A stretch of 64,000 nucleotides of DNA. Source: Candidatus Latescibacterota bacterium. Lineage in GTDB: Bacteria; Latescibacterota; UBA2968; UBA8231. The position numbers were made by a program, and so were the translations under genes. Below, piece after piece: positions 1,954-9,655 of this stretch. The number at the start of each line of letters is the position of its first letter. Position 1 is the stretch's first letter. Below the pieces are notes generated by a model, which made no database searches, was not told where the DNA came from, and saw only the letters and a list, made by a program, of their open reading frames with translations. The DNA is taken from assembly GCA_965208105.1 (NCBI GenBank), contig OZ242318.1, forward strand, positions 3,776,001 through 3,840,000, read 5' to 3'.

Positions 1954-2652
1954 ATGGAAGTTTCCGCCGTCTCTTTCGATGCTGACATGACATTGTGGGA
2001 CCTCGACAAGGTCATGCGCCATGCGCTTGAACACACCTTGACGGAACTGCGCCGGCGAGTTCCGACCCAACGCGCTCTGAGCCTTACAGTGGATGAGATG
2101 ATCGGGATTCGCAACCGGCTCGCCGAAGATCTGAAGGGCAAGGTCTGGGCCCTGGAGGAGATCAGGCGGCTTGCATTCGAGAGGACGCTCGAACTGATCG
2201 GATGTCCGGACCGCGGCCTGGCCGACCGTCTGATTCAGATTTATGAGAAGCATCGATTCGGGGATATCGAGCTCTATGATGACGTGGTGCCCGCTCTCGA
2301 CGTTCTGGCTCCTCATTTCAATCTCGGACTCGTGTCAAACGGCAACAGCTATCCTGAACGCTGTGGTCTGGGGGGACGCTTTGGTTTTGTAGTATTTGCC
2401 CAGGATGTGCGCATCGAGAAGCCCGATAGAAGGATCTTTCAGATCGCCGCGGAGAGGGCGCGCTGTCCGCTCGAGCAGATGGTGCACGTCGGGGATTCCC
2501 TCGAGGACGATGTGGCCGGCGCAGGCGAGGCCGGGGCCCAAACGGTCTGGCTCAATCGCCAAGGTCTGAAAAACGATACCGGGGTCAGGGCAGACTACGA
2601 AGTGACTTCGTTGACCGAGCTGCCCGCAATTTTTGGGATAGGTGGGAGCTGA
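1954..2652 (+). CDS. HAD-superfamily hydrolase
   Basis: FDADMTL, SNG, KPD, VGDS...D motifs. Confidence 0.9.
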   Translation: MEVSAVSFDADMTLWDLDKVMRHALEHTLTELRRRVPTQRALSLTVDEMIGIRNRLAEDLKGKVWALEEIRRLAFERTLELIGCPDRGLADRLIQIYEKHRFGDIELYDDVVPALDVLAPHFNLGLVSNGNSYPERCGLGGRFGFVVFAQDVRIEKPDRRIFQIAAERARCPLEQMVHVGDSLEDDVAGAGEAGAQTVWLNRQGLKNDTGVRADYEVTSLTELPAIFGIGGS

Positions 2653-2770
2653 AGGTATTTGGCCATCGAAGTCATGCGGCATTCTCGGGCAGGTCGGGGC
2701 CTGAAGTTTTCGGGCGAAAGGGACCGGGAAAATGGATGAGAAGGCGCGGGAAAACGATCCATGTCCCCCG

Positions 2771-2799
2771 TTGACAGTTGGAGGATGGAGGCATACTTT
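2771..2799 (+). promoter_or_regulatory. Putative sigma70 promoter of the ankyrin gene
   Basis: TTGACA-17bp-TACTTT. Confidence 0.5.
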
Positions 2800-2849
2800 C
2801 GCGCCGTACAACCCGGCGATTTCTCCAGCCCTGCTAGGGAGCCAATACC

Positions 2850-3467
2850 ATGAGCAATGATATCGAGGACCTCATCGATGCAAGCAGGAAGGGCGATCTG
2901 GAAAAGGTCCGTCTGATTATCGAAAGCGGAGTCGATGTCAATGCACAAGGGGCTCACGGCAACACCGCGCTGGTCAGCTCCTTCGCTTTCGGCGACCACC
3001 TGGATCTCGTTCGGCACCTCATTTCTCTCGGCGCCGACGTGGACTATACCGGAATGGAGGAGGGCAGCCCCCTCATGCTGGCAGCTTTCGCCGGCAAGAC
3101 CGAGCATATGAAGCTGTTCATCGCGGCAGGAGCCGACGTCAATCTATCCATGCCGGTGGGAGGGGAGACGGCCCTGCACGACGCTGCCGTCCAGGGACAC
3201 ACCGACGCGGTGGAGCTGCTGATCGCGGCAGGCGCCGACGTGAACAGGACCACCAACAGCAACGCCGCCACCTCCATGTTCACCGACAGGAAGCTCATGG
3301 GCGAAACTCCCTTGCATTTTGCGGCCGCCTTCGGTGACGCAGCGATGATCACGGCGCTGCTGGAAGCGGGAGCAGAGAAATCGATGGCGAATTCGCAAGG
3401 TGAACTTGCCCTCGATTACGCGACCCGCAAGGGGAGGCCCGAGGAGATCCTCGAGCTGCTCAGGTAG
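2850..3467 (+). CDS. Ankyrin repeat protein
   Basis: Repeated G.TPLH.AA..G....LL..GADVN units. Confidence 0.95.
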   Translation: MSNDIEDLIDASRKGDLEKVRLIIESGVDVNAQGAHGNTALVSSFAFGDHLDLVRHLISLGADVDYTGMEEGSPLMLAAFAGKTEHMKLFIAAGADVNLSMPVGGETALHDAAVQGHTDAVELLIAAGADVNRTTNSNAATSMFTDRKLMGETPLHFAAAFGDAAMITALLEAGAEKSMANSQGELALDYATRKGRPEEILELLR

Positions 3468-3604
3468 GGCTGCGAAGGCCGAGTCCCTGATCGCAGTGCA
3501 GGCCCGGTCCAGGGTGCGATCGTCCTGTCCTTTCTCCCCGAGTTAAAGTGTATTGATAGATCCCATTTACCGGTTCCCCATTCGTTCATTGGAGTGAAAA
3601 GAAC

Positions 3605-4642
3605 GTGCGCCTGTGCGCGGACGCGCTTCCCGACAGAATCGAGAACGTGGAAGAATTGGAGGAGCTGTTATCTCGTCCGAGCGATGACGTCGTCGAAGAT
3701 ATGGCGCGGGTCGAAGGCGGCGTCCTCATTCTGGGTGGAAGCGGAAAGGTGGGACCCACCCTTGCCCGCATGGCACGGCGCGCGGCGCCGCGCAAGCAGG
3801 TGGTCGCCGTGGCGCGCTTCAGCGATTCCGGGGTGCGCGAACGCCTGAGTTCGTGGGACATCGAAACGATCTGCTGCGACCTGTTCGATCCCGCCGCGGT
3901 GAGCCTGCTGCCGCGTTTGCCCAACGTCATCTTCATGGCCGGCCGCAAATTCGGCACCACCGGCCAGGAAGAGCTGACCTGGGCAACCAACGTCCACCTG
4001 CCCGGCATTGTAGCCCGGACCTTCGCCGGCTCGAAAATCATCGCCTTCTCCACTCTGTGTGTCTATCCCTTCGCCGACGCCGGCGGCCCCGGATGGGACG
4101 AGAGCGCGGAGGTCGGGCCGGTAGGCGAATACGCCAACTCCTGCGTCGGCCGCGAACGCATCTTCCAGCATTTCTCCGAACAACAGGACACGCCTGGCCG
4201 GCTGATTCGGCTGAACTACGCCATCGATCTGCGCTACGGAGTGTTGCACGACGTGGCCTCGCAAGTTTGGCGGAAGCAGCCCGTCGACGTGACCATGCCC
4301 GAGGTCAACGTGATCTGGCAGGGAGACGCCACGTCCCAGATCCTGCGCGCCCTGCGCCACTGCACCGTTCCCACCAGCCCCTTGAACGTGGGCGGTCCGA
4401 GCCAAACCTCGATAGAAGCGCTTGCCCAGGCCTTCGCAGCGCGTTTCGGCACCGAGCCCATATTCACCGGCCGTCCGTCTTCCACCGCGTGGATCAACGA
4501 TACCTCCCAGGCCACCGGTCTCTTCGGACCGCCGCTCGTTCCCCTCGAGCGCATGATCGACTGGACCGCGGACTGGGTCTCGCGGGAAATGCCGGGTTAT
4601 GCCAAGCCCACCCGCTACGAGGTCCGCGATGGGCGCTTCTGA
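3605..4642 (+). CDS. NAD-dependent epimerase/dehydratase family protein
   Basis: ILGGSGKVG Rossmann motif, GEYANSC, RLNYA. Confidence 0.85.
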   Translation: MRLCADALPDRIENVEELEELLSRPSDDVVEDMARVEGGVLILGGSGKVGPTLARMARRAAPRKQVVAVARFSDSGVRERLSSWDIETICCDLFDPAAVSLLPRLPNVIFMAGRKFGTTGQEELTWATNVHLPGIVARTFAGSKIIAFSTLCVYPFADAGGPGWDESAEVGPVGEYANSCVGRERIFQHFSEQQDTPGRLIRLNYAIDLRYGVLHDVASQVWRKQPVDVTMPEVNVIWQGDATSQILRALRHCTVPTSPLNVGGPSQTSIEALAQAFAARFGTEPIFTGRPSSTAWINDTSQATGLFGPPLVPLERMIDWTADWVSREMPGYAKPTRYEVRDGRF

Positions 4643-4685
4643 AGGTCGCGGAGGGGGCGCTGATGATCGGGCTCCAGCAAATCCG

Positions 4686-5435
4686 ATGATTTCCGGGCAG
4701 TTCATCGCCCAGCTCGGCCTCGACCGGGACAAGGTCCCATCCTGGAAGGATTTCCCCTTTTGCCTGAGCGCCGTCCGCCACCTCGACAATATCGATCTGC
4801 ACCCCTCCGTCACTTTCTTCGTCGGCGAAAACGGTTCGGGCAAGTCCACCCTTCTCGAAGCGATAGCCGTGGCCTGGGGCTTCAATCCCGAGGGCGGCTC
4901 CAGGCACTTCCAGTTCGGGTCGCGGCCTTCCCACTCCGTCCTGCAGCGGTATATCCGCTTTTCCCGGGGGGTCAAAAGGGCGCGGGACGGCTACTTCCTG
5001 CGCGCTGAAAGCTTCTTCAACGTGGCGACGCAAATCGAGGAACTGGACGAGGAATTCGACAACATTCCCCGCATCGTCGACGCCTACGGCAGTCGTCCCC
5101 TGCACGAGCAGTCCCACGGCGAGTCTTTCCTTTCCCTCATGCTGAACCGGTTTGGCGGCAGGGGGTTGTATGTGCTGGACGAGCCCGAAGCCGCCCTGTC
5201 TCCCGGCCGGCAGATGGCGGTGCTGTCGCGGATGCACGACCTCGTGCGGCAGGATTCACAGTTCATCGTGGCGACCCACTCGCCCATAATTATGGCCTAT
5301 CCCCACTCCATCATCTACCAACTGTCGGACCAGGGGATGGAGGAGGTCGAGTACACCGAAACGGAGCATTTCTCGGTGGCCAAAGGCTTTCTCGAAAATC
5401 ACCGCAGAATGCTGGACCTGATTCTGGCGAGGTAG
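4686..5435 (+). CDS. AAA/ABC-like ATPase (COG3910 type)
   Basis: GENGSGKST, QSHGESF, LDEPEAALS, ATHSP; start taken at ATG 4686. Confidence 0.9.
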   Translation: MISGQFIAQLGLDRDKVPSWKDFPFCLSAVRHLDNIDLHPSVTFFVGENGSGKSTLLEAIAVAWGFNPEGGSRHFQFGSRPSHSVLQRYIRFSRGVKRARDGYFLRAESFFNVATQIEELDEEFDNIPRIVDAYGSRPLHEQSHGESFLSLMLNRFGGRGLYVLDEPEAALSPGRQMAVLSRMHDLVRQDSQFIVATHSPIIMAYPHSIIYQLSDQGMEEVEYTETEHFSVAKGFLENHRRMLDLILAR

Positions 5436-5664
5436 GCGATTAGGAGAAAAGGCGAGAAGATGAGCGATCTTCCGGGGTCGGCGGCCGAGGTCAGGACTTT
5501 CCCCCGTTGGTCACAAAATCATACAAGTCAAGCGAGGACCCGCTCCTGATTGGTAGCTGACAAAATTTGGTCCAAACTGGCCAACTACCAGGCGCGTCGA
5601 GCGAGCTTTGGCAGAATCCGGATCTGTTCAAGGGGGGGTACACCGCGTCCCGGCCGGGGATGGC

Positions 5665-5861
5665 GAACGGAAGAGACGCGAAGCCCTGTTGCTGATTCGC
5701 TGAGGGGCTCCCGGTGCTGAGTGGTTAGCGGCTAGGTCGTTGAGCGGCTTTGCCGGATAGTAGGTTATCAACCCCCGAGATCGCGCGTTGCAGTGCGCGT
5801 CGCTTCTGGGCTATGCGCCGTCACCGGCGCAGTCGCACTTGCTTCCCTGTCTCTTCCGTTC
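5665..5861 (-). ncRNA. Candidate structured RNA directly downstream of the DIP1984-like gene
   Basis: 13-bp perfect inverted repeat (5665-5677/5849-5861) enclosing several hairpins, one with a GUGA tetraloop on the minus strand. Confidence 0.55.
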
Positions 5862-5870
5862 TACTCGTTC

Positions 5871-6407
5871 TTATTGTTCGTCAGCGTACTCCACCTCTAC
5901 CTCGAACGACGCGGCGCGGATCTGCCGATTGAGCTGGCGGAACTCGACGCGGACCTCGTTGAGACGGGTGCGGCAATCGTCGTAGGGCAACTCGTTGTCC
6001 TCGACGATGTCCCGCTCCTCCTTGTGGAGGACCCGCTCGTAGGCGGAGTCGACGACCTGGGTGTGCAGCTCTCCGAGGCGGTCGTTGAGCGCTTTGCGGG
6101 TCTCGAGGGCCTCGGTGAGGCTCATGTCGTCGCCCTCGTGCTCAACGCGGTGCTCGAAGTTGGCTCGCTGGATCGCGGCGTTCAGTTTGCGGCGTTTGAA
6201 CTCGAGGGTGCGCAACTGGTCGCGTGCCTCGGAGACGCTGAATCCTGGTGCCGGTCGGCGCGAGAAGTCGTTGTCACGACGGGAGAACAGGTCTCGATTC
6301 TGACGCGCCTCGGGCAGGCAGTCGCGCAGCGTCTTGATGCGGGCGTCGTACTCGCCCCGCAGCTCGAGGGCTTCGTAGAGTTTGACGGTCTTTCTGGCTT
6401 CGGTCAT
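5871..6407 (-). CDS. DIP1984/DUF6847-like coiled-coil protein
   Basis: Internally duplicated KLYEALELR/SLTEALETR and KLNAAIQRANF/QLNRQIRAASF motifs; strong RBS AAGGAGGTGA. Confidence 0.7.
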   Translation of the reverse strand: MTEARKTVKLYEALELRGEYDARIKTLRDCLPEARQNRDLFSRRDNDFSRRPAPGFSVSEARDQLRTLEFKRRKLNAAIQRANFEHRVEHEGDDMSLTEALETRKALNDRLGELHTQVVDSAYERVLHKEERDIVEDNELPYDDCRTRLNEVRVEFRQLNRQIRAASFEVEVEYADEQ

Positions 6408-6668
6408 ATCTCACCTCCTTCTATTTTACCGGGAGATGAATGAAATTCGAGGGGACGTAGAACAGTCGCAAGGGTTCCAGCGACTTTTTGCGGGGGATGG
6501 AGAAGTGTAGTTTATCCAGGCCATCGGCGGCCAGGGCAGTGGGCTGAGTACCAAGCATCTGAGCGGCCTGCCCGGTTTCGTCGTCGACGCCAGCACAGGC
6601 AGCAAACCCGGAGACGCCACCCGCCCCGCGCGCGGAGGGTCCATCTCGACCAATGGTCCGGACCTGGC

Positions 6669-8678
6669 TCAGCTAGCGATGATCCGCCGACGACCACCTT
6701 CCAAACGGTCCAGCTCCTCCAGGCATCGAGGCCTGCGGCTGTTTTGCAGTCTCAAGGCGGCCAGGTACTCCTGCCATACGTCCTTGCGGCGGGTGCGATT
6801 GAGTACATTTCTAACCTTGCGCAGATAGGGAACCGCCGCCTGGTACCCACTGGCCTGAACCCGGGCGATATTATTTTTCGCGATCTCTTTCCAAATTGCC
6901 ACGGCCCGGTCCGGATGGGTCGATTTGACGGCTTCGGCCACCTCCTCGTCGAGGGAGAAGCCAAACATCCCGGACGGACCTTTTTTGCGGCCGCCGTGGT
7001 CGTACCACTTCAGAACTTCTTTCGGCTTTTTCTCGGCAATGGCCAACTGGGTCAGCACCTCGGTCATAGGCGCCTCAGATATCCAGGATGCTGCAGGCAC
7101 CGCGACCTCGGAAGCCGGCAGGGGCCAGGCTATCATCGGGTCGCTTTTGCGCTTCCTGCCGGCGCGGGGTCGCCGGCCGGTTTGCAGGTAGTGCCGCCCC
7201 CAGGCCTCGACTCCCTTGCCAGCGCGCGCGCTGCGGGCGGCTTTGCACAAATCCAGGAAATCGCCCGAACTGGGCCTGGCAAAAAATTCCTCCGCCTGTA
7301 AGGCCGGCCCGGCGAGCGGATTGCCGCTGCGCTGGTTTATGGTCTGCAGTTGTGGCCGCAGTCTCGCATTGAGGCCGCCAAACTCGGAGGACGCGGCCTC
7401 AATCCCCTGCCGGCACCAGCGCCGGGCCTCTTCCCAGCGCCGCCCGGCTATCAGGCGATTCACCAGGCGCCCGTAACTGAAGGTGATGGGGGCTTCGCGC
7501 TCGCACAGAGGAATGATATCCTTCCGACGGCCGGCCTTTTCCAGGGCTTTAATGAGCCAGTTGGAGATTCGGTCCCGTACGAAGTGATACGAAAGATCAT
7601 CATCTCCGGCAGGGGGGGACTCACAGGCCTCCAGGCGCTGTGTCAAGCGGTCGCAAACCGCGGACCAATCGCTTTTGGCGTAGTCTTTCTTCCAGAAGTT
7701 TTCCAGTCCGTCGGCGCACAGCTCGTAGTCGTCGGCCAGGGCCATGTCCAGGGCCCATTCTATCCGGTCTGCCGCCGCCAGGGAAGACCCATCCAGGGCG
7801 CGGAAAAGGACATTGAGGCAGTCGCTGATCGCATCGCCGGATTCTCCCTCATGCTCGTACTCCAGCACCCGGCTGCCCGCAGCCAGTAGTTCCGGCCCCA
7901 GTCGCACCGCCGCGTCGGCCTGTCCGGCTTCGACCAGTGTTTTGAGCGCCGCTTCGAGACGCTCCGTACTGGCAGCAGGGACCCCGTAGCCATAACCTTC
8001 CCATGCTGGTTCTTCCAGGGCTGCGATCTCGCCGCGGATCGTCTGCAGAACTTTGTGCGCCTTCCCCGAGGTCAGGGTGCGGCGGTCCTCAAGCGACCGG
8101 CGCACCCCCTCGTGCGCTTCGGCGAGTTGGACCAGCAGCGTTACCAGTTCGGCCTTGGTCTGCTTTTGCAGGTGCGCGCGCAGGGAAGAGAACATGGTTT
8201 GCCTGGAGCTTGCGGAACGCGCCTTGACGTTCTCCTCTTCCAGGTCTTCGCGGTACTCCTCCATATCGAACTCCTCCAGCTCCTCGAACTCTTCCTCGAT
8301 CGCGTCCAATTCCAGCAGGCGCGGATCGTCTTCCTCAACCCGGCCGATGGCGGTCTTGGCTTTTATCATTTCCAGGTATTTCAGCACCACGGCCACCGCG
8401 TGTTTGCAGGTCGCCCAGTATGGACAGGTACACTCTGATTCAAGATTCTTCCTTCCCTCGATGCGCACCCGGGTGGCATAGGGACGACTGCCCAGCACCC
8501 AGGCGACCAGCGTCCCGTCTTCGGCGCGCCCCAGGTCCCGAACAGCCCCCTGTCTCAGATAGGTCTGCCCCCGGGAGACGATGCGATCGCCGGCCCATTC
8601 CTCCAGGTCTTCCCAGGTGAGTTTCGAGAAGGGATCAACGGGCTTTTTCGGTTTGGTCTTTTTCTTTCGAGGAGCCAT
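6669..8678 (-). CDS. SWIM zinc-finger protein with helical C-terminal region
   Basis: CTCPYWATCKHAVAV SWIM motif, RGQTY motif, acidic linker. Confidence 0.85.
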   Translation of the reverse strand: MAPRKKKTKPKKPVDPFSKLTWEDLEEWAGDRIVSRGQTYLRQGAVRDLGRAEDGTLVAWVLGSRPYATRVRIEGRKNLESECTCPYWATCKHAVAVVLKYLEMIKAKTAIGRVEEDDPRLLELDAIEEEFEELEEFDMEEYREDLEEENVKARSASSRQTMFSSLRAHLQKQTKAELVTLLVQLAEAHEGVRRSLEDRRTLTSGKAHKVLQTIRGEIAALEEPAWEGYGYGVPAASTERLEAALKTLVEAGQADAAVRLGPELLAAGSRVLEYEHEGESGDAISDCLNVLFRALDGSSLAAADRIEWALDMALADDYELCADGLENFWKKDYAKSDWSAVCDRLTQRLEACESPPAGDDDLSYHFVRDRISNWLIKALEKAGRRKDIIPLCEREAPITFSYGRLVNRLIAGRRWEEARRWCRQGIEAASSEFGGLNARLRPQLQTINQRSGNPLAGPALQAEEFFARPSSGDFLDLCKAARSARAGKGVEAWGRHYLQTGRRPRAGRKRKSDPMIAWPLPASEVAVPAASWISEAPMTEVLTQLAIAEKKPKEVLKWYDHGGRKKGPSGMFGFSLDEEVAEAVKSTHPDRAVAIWKEIAKNNIARVQASGYQAAVPYLRKVRNVLNRTRRKDVWQEYLAALRLQNSRRPRCLEELDRLEGGRRRIIAS

Positions 8679-8707
8679 TTGGTTCAGTTATCCGGTTAAA
8701 AAAAACC

Positions 8708-9655
8708 GTAACCGTTCAGTTCTCTGGCGGGGGCGCCAGGAAAGACTACGAAATCTGGTTGGGCAGCAACGAGGGTGCTGGTTGGTTCCGCAAAGGGGCG
8801 TAACAGGCCAGCGTGAGAAAGTCGAGGACGTTGCGCTGCTGCTGACGCAGGGTGTCCCGCACTGTGAGCAGGCGCTCTGCGAAACGGCTGCCCTCGGCAC
8901 TGTGGCTGCCGAAGCTGGTGTGGCGCCACAACACGCCATGGCGAAGGGCTCGTTCGGCGTCGTTGTTCGTCGGCTCCACACCGTCCCGGTGGAAGAAGGT
9001 CCACAGGGCCGGCTCGAGGTCGAGGAAATTGCCGCAGGTGGCCGCCGTATGGGCGTCGGCGAACTGCTGTCCATGGCACAGGCGAAAACGAACCCGATGG
9101 CGCAGATCGCTGACATAGACTCGAAAGCTGGAGCGTTGCAGGGTACCATCGCGGATGCGTTGCCACCAGGTAAACAGCTTCTCGCTACAGTCCAACAGCT
9201 CCTGGCCGACCCAGGCGGCGTCTCCTTTTCGGGCCACAAAGTCCTCAAAGGTGCGCTGCAGATGTGCCCAACACACTAGGCGACGTCGAGGCGGCAAATG
9301 CCCGTAGACCGAAAATCGATCCGAGCCGATGATCGCCGTGCTGTCGTCGCCGAGCATCTCATCAACCACCTCCCGACCGCGACGGGTGCGAATCGCGAAC
9401 ACCGAAACGCCCTCTGTCACCACCGTCCACAACCACGCCTTGGCGCGGCGCTCCCGTCAGCTCGTCTCGTCCATATTGACCATGGCCTGTTGGCGAACGA
9501 AGGCCCGGGCCTCTGCCACCGGCTGGACCAGCGCTTCGGATACCTCTTGCTCCAGTTGGCTGATCGTACCCAGCGACACCTCCAGGCCGAACGCGTCGCA
9601 CAACAGCGCCCGGATGTTGCGCTTGCTCAAGCGGTAGGCGCCGGCCAACCCAAGC
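8708..9655 (-). mobile_element. IS66-family remnant (5'-truncated transposase with in-frame TGA); terminal repeat at 8708
   Basis: DETS*, SDRFSVY, CWAHL.R.F and PTNNDAERALR motifs; GTAACCGTTCAG end at 8708; stop at 9457-9459. Confidence 0.85.

Follow-up and report, generated by a model that had tools for sequence, protein, structure and literature searches.

A predicted pseudoknotted RNA with a regular repeat run is genetically linked to DUF6847/DIP1984-like genes in Latescibacterota and other phyla

Spaced three-nucleotide words in unpaired RNA, one for each protein unit, are found in the trp leader bound by TRAP and the hut leader bound by HutP in Bacillus; both RNAs are 5′ attenuation leaders, and the proteins form beta-rich rings or hexamers. 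CsrB and RsmZ carry GGA words in hairpin loops, have no pseudoknotted core and are encoded by RNA genes unlinked to csrA. In type III toxin-antitoxin systems (ToxIN, CptIN and TenpIN), repeats of ~34-36 nucleotides (nt) lie upstream of the gene for a ToxN/AbiQ-type endoribonuclease toxin, with a terminator in between, and are cut by the toxin. Bacterial Ro proteins (Rsr) have Y RNAs (YrlA) that are closed end to end by a long stem, lie beside the gene of the binding protein and contain no short-repeat run. Here we describe a locus of a Candidatus Latescibacterota bacterium, analysed in a 64,000-nt stretch of its genome (GenBank assembly GCA_965208105.1, contig OZ242318.1, positions 3,776,001 to 3,840,000; hereafter the window, whose own numbering is used throughout). 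Positions 5665-5861 of its reverse strand encode what comparison with relatives identifies as a new class of structured RNA, directly downstream of a gene for a DUF6847/DIP1984-like protein, and the two together are probably a new ribonucleoprotein.

The closest analogues for how this RNA may work are the TRAP and HutP leaders, which share its spaced words in an unpaired run; here, however, the RNA is 3′, the run sits inside closing helices beside a pseudoknotted core, the period is 7-8 nt and the protein forms a bundle of helices from two repeats. Like CsrB and RsmZ it is one RNA with many short words that could hold several copies of a small protein, but its AGC or UAC words are unpaired, the protein is not CsrA-like and no Csr or Rsm family of Rfam matches. 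With type III toxin-antitoxin systems it shares a compact, horizontally spread pair of a protein gene and a repetitive non-coding RNA; both features tested differ: the RNA lies downstream, with units of 7-8 nt within one folded RNA, and the protein has neither a nuclease fold by Foldseek against PDB nor a PADLOC match. A closed, structured RNA beside a protein gene recalls Ro and Y RNA, as do a transfer RNA (tRNA) T-arm-like element and one rtcA neighbour in related loci described below, but no Ro/TROVE neighbour recurs in 80 homologous loci, whose neighbours were named in part by Pfam, and no Y-RNA family of Rfam matches. Among the defining features of these systems that could be tested, the module shares only the TRAP/HutP-like spaced words.

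Both ends of the RNA are formed by the arms of its outermost helix, P1, and its total length is 197 nt (covariance model R1). The P1 arms, GAACGGAAGAGAC at 5849-5861 and GUCUCUUCCGUUC at 5665-5677 (both on the reverse strand), are 13 nt long and fully complementary with 171 nt in between, and the gene-proximal arm ends 9 nt past the TAA stop codon of the gene. The word GAACGGAAGAGAC occurs twice in the window against 0.11 expected, a count reached in 0/100 shuffles. Folded as a single sequence, the gene strand gives −80.8 kcal/mol (z = −2.30) and the opposite strand −97.7 kcal/mol (z = −2.35), with 6/200 shuffles equally good in each case. Single-sequence folding is therefore not decisive, and it is the comparison with relatives that carries the argument. 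At 5668-5857 model R1 has its sole match in the 4.85-Mb single-contig genome, with 153.9 bits, and BLAST of a 221-nt stretch against the same genome returned only the stretch itself and 12 other matches of 15-30 nt with E ≥ 0.27. Being single-copy and tied to its gene, the element is not a miniature inverted-repeat transposable element (MITE), an identity that the original prediction, made from the window sequence alone, had named as one that would overturn its proposal of a protein-RNA module. The Rfam scan it proposed matches no family: with Rfam 15, nothing in the window comes near a gathering threshold (best, Ysr224 at 16.4 bits against 70, on the opposite strand), and 20 homologous loci yielded one tRNA and nothing else at gathering thresholds. 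A terminator scan found no site at the element; the nearest on the reverse strand is a terminator-like hairpin with a U-rich tail at 5543-5523. P1 encloses 171 nt and is followed by no U tract in the window, so the element does not qualify as an intrinsic terminator. The absence of a U tract, part of the original prediction, holds for the window and its clade but does not extend to the relatives at large, as 47/84 related RNAs have a U-rich tail after the closing stem. A sigma-70 promoter scan of 5450-6750 found no site.

Support for a folded RNA comes from covariation across relatives. RNAalifold, given 43 sequences no more than 90% identical to one another, predicted 27 pairs with compensatory changes in 21. 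In an alignment of 84 matches to R1 (83 distinct), to which two pseudoknots were added by hand, 94.3% of 2779 cells are paired compared with 36-55% when partners are slid, and 419 cells are altered on both sides compared with 23-98 in slid controls; 0/500 shuffles reach any observed measure. The R1 alignment is fitted to the nested helices and is biased towards them, while both pseudoknots lie outside the model; in an unfitted MAFFT alignment, 90.9% of cells are paired versus 33-45% in slid controls. The inner seven pairs of P1, the part that is modelled, are 97% paired in the 83 distinct rows, with both-side changes in 5/7. P1b, which pairs GAAGC (5841-5845) with GCUUC (5680-5684), is 100% paired, and each of its pairs is swapped, GC to AU or CG to UA, in 10-11 rows. 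P2 (5814-5831) is a hairpin with the GNRA loop GUGA, 96-98% paired with both-side changes in 7/7 pairs, in a region closed by an invariant G-C/C-G pair. P3 (5782-5799; CGCGC/GCGCG) is 88% paired, with both-side changes in 4/4 pairs, and its loop CUG (5791-5793) forms pseudoknot 1 with the CAG (5806-5808) of the near-invariant UAGCCCAG. Pseudoknot 1 is 100% paired in 79 rows, including changes from CG to AU (2 rows) and from AU to GC (8 rows). P4 (5772-5774 with 5762-5764; 86% paired) includes GGUU/AACC and is interleaved, within 5756-5774, with pseudoknot 2 (GAUA at 5766-5769 with UAUC at 5756-5759), which is 81% paired and has both-side changes in 4/4 pairs. All of these lie on the reverse strand. 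G-U pairs are many (18 and 11 in two P2 pairs, 23 in P4, and others in P1). Read from the opposite strand they would become A-C, which places the RNA on the strand of the gene. The core is kept in sequence as well as in pairing.

These comparisons show a predicted fold of two stacked closing helices, a GNRA hairpin and two pseudoknots. The covarying structure downstream of homologs on which the original prediction had staked itself is thus present, and much of its drawing survives: the outer 13-nt pairing ~9 nt past the TAA (P1, with fully complementary arms in the window), the GAAGC/GCUUC extension (P1b), the GUGA hairpin (P2), CGCGC/GCGCG (P3) and GGUU/AACC (part of P4). Two further helices that it proposed, CCC-AGA/UCU-GGG and CGGC-AAA-GCCG, are paired in 58-65% of cells, compared with 56-63% in slid controls, and are rejected; CAG 5806-5808 forms pseudoknot 1 with CUG 5791-5793 instead. 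The original prediction also missed both pseudoknots and a run of octamer repeats, the most telling parts of the RNA.

The repeat run (5687-5756, reverse strand) follows the conserved CCGGNAAAGC, starts at the conserved CCGGCAAAGC and takes up the final ~70 nt before the 3′ strand of P1b. It is A/C-rich (20 A, 29 C, 15 G and 6 U over 70 nt in the window), largely unpaired in the consensus, and composed of ~8 octamers, written as NNNNNAGC, that end in AGC or a weaker A-N-C. Across the 43 sequences, successive AGC words are spaced by 8 nt (73 times), 9 nt (17 times) or 15-17 nt (53 times), and well-preserved runs of this kind, type 1, have 8-9 units. A second kind, type 2, comes from six metagenome loci (L115, L116, L124 and its near-twin L137, L144 and L161) with five distinct RNAs, which R1 scores at only 52-61 bits. 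In five of these six loci the upstream protein is 35-38% identical to the window protein, and L115 has no upstream gene. Type 2 RNAs retain P1, P1b, the AAGUGCGA joiner, the GUGA hairpin and AUAGCC, and the units of their runs end in UUAC with a 7-nt period (UAC-to-UAC spacings of 7 nt 18 times, 8 nt 5 times, 14 nt twice and 21 nt 4 times). A type 2 run contains 0-3 AGC words, whereas type 1 runs (n = 81) have on average 5.3 AGC and 0.58 UAC. Regularly spaced short words in unpaired RNA are thus found in both types, as AGC in type 1 and as UAC in type 2, and in these alignments the word and the period differ by protein subfamily while the core stays. An Rfam scan of one type 2 locus and 13 canonical loci (described below), at both gathering and E-value thresholds, gave nothing relevant.

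Gene and RNA are found together when either is used as the query. Among 61 related genomes, 12 have a match to the protein and 8, including the window's own, have it at full length, while a genome of the same genus has none; a similar element follows the stop codon in 7/7 full-length homolog loci of the related genomes. In the same set, R1 matches all eight genomes with a full gene. Its further matches are G029, where the gene is fragmented and the RNA scores 123 bits, G026, where both have decayed, and a weak one of 25 bits in G018, which lacks the gene. A wider scan of one-per-species genomes found 125 relatives, of which the best 80 loci were kept; they map to Latescibacterota (proteins 93-97% identical), Gemmatimonadota, Desulfobacterota groups, Acidobacteriota, Spirochaetota (Spirochaetia), the Planctomycetota-Verrucomicrobiota-Chlamydiota (PVC) group, SAR324, Nitrospinota, Chloroflexota (Dehalococcoidales) and two contigs of archaeal metagenome-assembled genomes (MAGs). 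By nhmmer with five seed RNAs, 79/80 loci have the RNA on the gene strand directly past the stop, and R1 agrees. The one miss (L107) is a partial protein match only. RNA matches are clipped by contig ends in L029, L052 and L102, and only the 3′ part is left in L075 and L084; L075 has a full gene and retains the repeat run although its core is lost.

For the reverse direction, a 19-nt word of the RNA core was scanned over metagenome contigs, which gave at least 119 stretches, of which 80 loci were examined. R1 confirmed 68; 12 loci without a model match were set aside as chance matches, and two more were dropped as weak (L187 at 24 bits and L142 at 15 bits). Of the remaining 66, 13 have <560 nt upstream, leaving 53 testable loci, and 47 of these encode a full protein in one frame that ends 10-48 nt (mostly 10-25 nt) before the word. 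The other six have gene remnants (L113, L121, L132 and L165) or no gene (L183 and L115). Intact or near-intact RNAs (123-171 bits) stand beside truncated, frameshifted or missing genes in L113 (RNA clipped by the contig end), L121, L132, L165, L183 and G029 (G029:C158, L022), while every full gene with readable downstream DNA keeps the repeat run.

No other gene accompanies the pair. When 998 open reading frames (ORFs) from the 80 loci were clustered, only the gene itself recurred in all 80, and the search for a conserved partner gave just the gene and its antisense shadow ORFs. Comparison by blastn of window positions 2500-9500 with 13 close loci found 82-92% identity inside 5592-6489 and nothing outside, which delimits a cassette of ~900 base pairs (bp) on the reverse strand with 82 nt upstream, the gene, the RNA and a 73-nt tail. 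The match extends to 5592 in 8/13 of these loci, so that 5592-5664, past the RNA, is also conserved. These analyses show, at the level of sequence, a strict two-way genetic linkage between the RNA and the protein family, with no third gene, in a small cassette found in unrelated contexts. No match to the window protein was found by tblastn in plasmids and phages, and 50 pattern matches in viral contigs of IMG/VR (alignment A1) include no relative.

Several loci of these scans deserve mention in their own right. Candidatus Uabimicrobium (L099, NZ_CP165719) has three tandem RNAs (3523-3706, 4068-4256 and 4284-4470; 118-132 bits each), the first directly after the gene and the other two ~360 nt beyond. 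The two archaeal-binned contigs that carry the module (L052 and L077) come from Bathyarchaeota and Thermoplasmata MAGs; the L077 RNA does not differ from the one on a Desulfatibia contig (L063), which makes mis-binning or a recent transfer likely. Two chance word matches, L123 (motif at 5543, reverse strand) and L170, are followed by CUGAGA...ACCUG...GGGA ahead of an ATG, a pattern that resembles a thiamine pyrophosphate (TPP) riboswitch.

The protein gene (5871-6407, reverse strand; ORF list and Pfam) encodes 178 amino acids, ends in TAA at 5871-5873 and starts at ATG 6405-6407, upstream of which the ribosome-binding site AAGGAGGTGA is read off the sequence at 6411-6420. The only Pfam family of the protein is PF20935 (DUF6847; E = 9.6e-12, 45.5 bits against a cut-off of 27), and two stretches of it each match profile positions ~58-140. 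It also matches NCBIfam DIP1984_fam (NF038048) over profile positions 1-148 of 149 with 42 bits (E = 9.7e-11), below the cut-off of 70, and is by sequence a distant relative of that family, not a member by the NCBI rule. The internal duplication stated in the original prediction is real, since the halves align with each other (E = 0.005, 26% identity over 78 residues); each half has a helix with the conserved motif LN..I(Q/R)..(N/S)F. An AlphaFold2 model built from a 61-sequence alignment (predicted local distance difference test score, pLDDT, 93.6) has four long helices and small beta hairpins, with a low-confidence insert at ~residues 40-57. Foldseek against PDB at E ≤ 0.001 matched this model solely to two chains of 3KDQ (E = 5.7e-5 and 1.2e-4; template modelling, TM, score 0.67-0.81), a Corynebacterium diphtheriae protein without known function, whose crystal structure was released in 2009 and whose entry holds four chains. 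The window protein is ~30 residues longer; it is in Pfam DUF6847 and its model superposes on 3KDQ, yet it falls under the NCBIfam cut-off. On the strength of the model, it is predicted to have the DIP1984 fold. A profile search against PDB likewise found 3KDQ only (E = 0.53), and a plain sequence search of the protein against PDB gave no match at E ≤ 1. No nuclease fold was found by Foldseek against PDB, and none of the PADLOC models matches the protein. Matches in PHROGs were weak (best E = 4e-4, to a tail-fibre family) and were taken as a coiled-helix artefact. DIP1984 genes are often mislabelled 'septicolysin' in annotation. A literature search, with supplements and subscription journals outside it, turned up neither a published function nor a published RNA partner for any DUF6847/DIP1984 member; in the part of one paper that concerns it, 'septicolysin' is treated as a putative cytolysin by name only (PMC5559437).

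More typical members of the family also appear to be followed by an RNA. When 168 genomes of the phylum were searched for the family, two genes matched the full DUF6847 profile (L229 and L230, ~175 bits); we refer to them, with their relatives, as canonical. R1 has no match at either locus, and ARAGORN found no tRNA or transfer-messenger RNA (tmRNA) at them. Between L229 and L230, 210 nt downstream of the gene are conserved, with a 14-bp closing stem kept via G-U changes, a T-arm-like GUGGGUUCGAGUCCCAC and a run of UAC words. The L229 protein matches 370 plasmid records, of which 341 are from Acinetobacter and 17 from Enterococcus; other carriers are Picosynechococcus, Streptomyces, Mycobacterium, Paracoccus, Psychrobacter and Aeromonas, and these relatives are labelled DIP1984 family protein or septicolysin. 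In 11 canonical loci, at least 260 nt after the gene hold no listed gene (260-440 nt in those with a listed next gene), weak evidence in itself, as the plasmid gene table is incomplete and lists no RNA genes. Closing stems are lineage-specific, with 11 perfect pairs 183 nt apart in pAB0057 and 13 pairs in Psychrobacter. RNAalifold on 12 canonical sequences from six phyla predicted two long-range helices with compensatory changes in 10/10 pairs. The words are UAC in Latescibacterota, Cyanobacteriota and Moraxellaceae, CAC in Actinomycetota and GAC in Paracoccus. From these comparisons, which cover few loci and include features aligned by eye, canonical DIP1984 genes, including those on Acinetobacter plasmids, likely carry an RNA of the same ground plan.

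Some canonical loci have features of their own. A T-arm-like GGGUUCGA(C/G)UCCC with a flanking stem occurs in the RNAs of Latescibacterota and Actinomycetota (L229:2030-2060, L264, L266 and L267). Just past the 3′ closing arm, GAGGG(U/C)GGG followed after 3-4 nt by GGGG is found in Actinomycetota, Cyanobacteriota and Paracoccus (L264, L266, L267, L258, L261 and L262); this G-tract motif, which has no counterpart in the window, may be G-quadruplex-like. On Acinetobacter baumannii p2VB280821 (L263:1319-1650), rtcA begins 260 nt after the DIP1984 gene, beyond the RNA, a single case for which neighbourhoods of Ro, Y RNA and Rtc genes offer a parallel. L260:1098-1328 (reverse strand) resembles a T-box leader (86.8 bits against a gathering threshold of 93); it lies upstream of a peptide ATP-binding cassette (ABC) transporter gene that adjoins an Enterococcus DIP1984 gene, and it is unrelated to the module.

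Transcript assemblies give weak hints that gene and RNA are co-transcribed and that the RNA part accumulates. Four metatranscriptome runs of sponges or corals, each from a different study, contain contigs of relatives at 90-95% identity. Gene and RNA lie together on one 771-nt contig (5660-6422), and in all four runs there are contigs that end where P1 does on its 3′ side, at 5658-5676. A 189-nt contig of one run (5676-5863) has a depth of 29.5 compared with 2.3-3.5 for coding contigs (~8-fold), and in another a contig covering 5667-6089 has a depth of 195.6 against 2.2 further upstream; contig ends and depths are a poor gauge of processing or expression, and the libraries may hold DNA. Window stretches without contig cover were given no weight. 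The original prediction of a co-transcribed, processed RNA is in this way weakly supported in its first half by the 771-nt contig, and in its second half hinted at by contig ends and depths.

The surroundings of the cassette vary. In the window it is flanked by genes for a 669-residue SWIM zinc-finger protein (6669-8678, reverse strand), a match to the PADLOC candidate PDC-S62 (E = 8.8e-18), and for a convergent 278-residue AAA_21/AAA_15 ATPase similar to PtuA, AriA and mad3 (4599-5435, forward strand). Farther out are an IS66 transposase fragment (8746-9432, reverse strand; 2.9 kb from the element) and an ankyrin-repeat protein (2850-3467, forward strand). The SWIM protein was considered as a partner and rejected, as a close relative (L030) has an aspartyl-tRNA synthetase-type gene upstream with no similarity to it. 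In the other loci, of which only some neighbours were named by Pfam, lineage-specific neighbours include PhyH and MR_MLE enzymes. In spirochaete loci (L091:2643-3011, L094, L095, L102 and L106) the DUF6847 gene directly follows the end of a PemK/MazF-like toxin gene, an HTH_31 gene lies just upstream in PVC loci, and an AAA_14-DUF4143 ATPase is upstream in eight loci from three phyla. That the module lies in an accessory region, as had been proposed, agrees with the same-genus genome that lacks it, the nearby IS66 fragment and the ~900 bp shared with close relatives.

We consider it probable, at roughly 60%, that the protein and the RNA of the cassette form a particle, with several protein units bound along the repeat run. 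The RNA would be transcribed as the 3′ part of the DUF6847/DIP1984-like messenger RNA (mRNA) and form with the gene a self-contained two-part cassette of ~900 bp. The unpaired A/C-rich run inside the closing helices would act as a multi-site docking platform, so that one RNA could hold several units of the two-halved protein in a ribonucleoprotein particle, either to sequester a harmful protein or as an active particle. That the protein binds the RNA, in what stoichiometry and to what cellular end, is what we infer from sequence: binding from the strict genetic linkage and the shift of the repeat motif with the protein subfamily, and the run as the binding part because its word and period track the subfamily while the core stays, because the full gene of L075 keeps the run despite its lost core, and because ~8 equal sites face a protein of two like halves. 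Strong AGC alternates with weaker A-N-C, which gives the 15-17-nt spacings and would suit a protein whose two halves differ and each read one of two adjacent units. An arrangement of four proteins for eight units, an attractive guess and no more, would recall the four chains of the 3KDQ entry. Several observations weigh against such a particle. The window run itself has just six AGC words, at spacings of 16, 15, 9, 8 and 8 nt, and canonical units are irregularly spaced at 5-8 nt. The co-variation of word and subfamily comes from few lineages, with five distinct type 2 and 12 canonical RNAs, and the change of word could stem from shared descent, not recognition. The protein is net acidic (isoelectric point, pI, 5.43; family median 6.47), Foldseek against PDB found no known RNA-binding fold for it, and the signs of a separate RNA come from contig ends and depths. 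More tentatively, and with somewhat less than an even chance, each branch of DIP1984/DUF6847 (the window clade, its UUAC sister clade and the canonical proteins of ~150 residues in Actinomycetota, Cyanobacteriota, Bacillota and Pseudomonadota, among them the 'septicolysin' of hundreds of Acinetobacter plasmids) may be encoded with a cognate, co-evolved RNA run of ~5-9 AGC, UUAC, UAC, CAC or GAC words at a 6-8-nt period, assembling a defined particle.

A functional sub-case of the particle, also raised by the original prediction and in our view rather unlikely, is an RNA antitoxin like that of type III systems, where the protein would harm the cell, the multi-site RNA of the same transcript would soak it up and the cassette would be addictive or defensive. 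RNAs beside decayed genes, together with the absence of any full gene without the run, would fit an RNA that restrains a harmful protein, and the spread is patchy and looks horizontal (8/61 related genomes but not the same-genus one; only ~900 bp common to close relatives amid unrelated flanks; canonical members on the 370 plasmid records). Neighbours often belong to defence or toxin-antitoxin families, such as the PDC-S62-like SWIM protein, the PtuA/AriA-like ATPase and PemK/MazF in spirochaetes, but they vary by lineage; moreover, the protein has neither a PADLOC match nor a nuclease fold, searches of phage records and viral contigs gave no relatives, and gene order and repeat size are unlike those of every type III family known to us. 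Were the element instead a purely cis-acting 3′ end that stabilises, terminates or auto-regulates its own mRNA, with no separate RNA, its start 9-25 nt past the stop, the U-rich tail in 47/84 rows and the common contig ends at 5658-5676 in four studies would be expected. We regard this as improbable: ~190 nt with two pseudoknots and near-invariant single strands across phyla go far beyond the needs of a terminator or stabiliser, a U tract is missing from the window clade, L099 carries three tandem copies, the RNA outlives decayed genes and, as a weak sign, a separate 189-nt RNA contig has ~8 times the depth of coding contigs.

An RNA with an activity or clients of its own, whether self-cleaving or serving as a scaffold or decoy akin to tRNA or Y RNA, would make the protein a helper or regulator and leave the repeats to another factor or to base pairing. 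The core conserved in sequence as well as pairing, the acidic protein, the T-arm-like element in Actinomycetota and Latescibacterota canonical relatives and the rtcA gene 260 nt after DIP1984 on one Acinetobacter plasmid would suit it, but ARAGORN and Rfam, including its Y-RNA, tRNA and ribozyme families, found nothing, no other gene travels with the pair and the repeat motif tracks the protein subfamily, so that we give this reading slim odds. An inverted repeat that arose by chance, a MITE or a mobile-element end would be compatible with single-sequence z values of only −2.3 on both strands and with the IS66 fragment 2.9 kb away; it is refuted, with next to no probability left, by the single copy seen with BLAST and the covariance model, the compensatory changes across phyla and the fixed place after one gene.

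A pseudoknotted core joined to spaced words of 3-4 nt that change with the protein subfamily is an unusual RNA design, and if the protein does bind it, the module would be a compact natural example of multi-site protein-RNA recognition. For this small module, set among unrelated genes and with relatives on plasmids, it is plausible that it serves plasmid maintenance, the stress response or defence; the ~260-440-nt stretches with no listed gene after plasmid DIP1984 genes could then be annotated. Should the reading that extends to all branches of the family be true, it would reveal a bacterial ribonucleoprotein that is widespread, has so far gone unseen and in which protein and RNA recognise each other by a readable code. 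For the DIP1984/DUF6847 family, the covarying RNA after the gene is a first functional handle.

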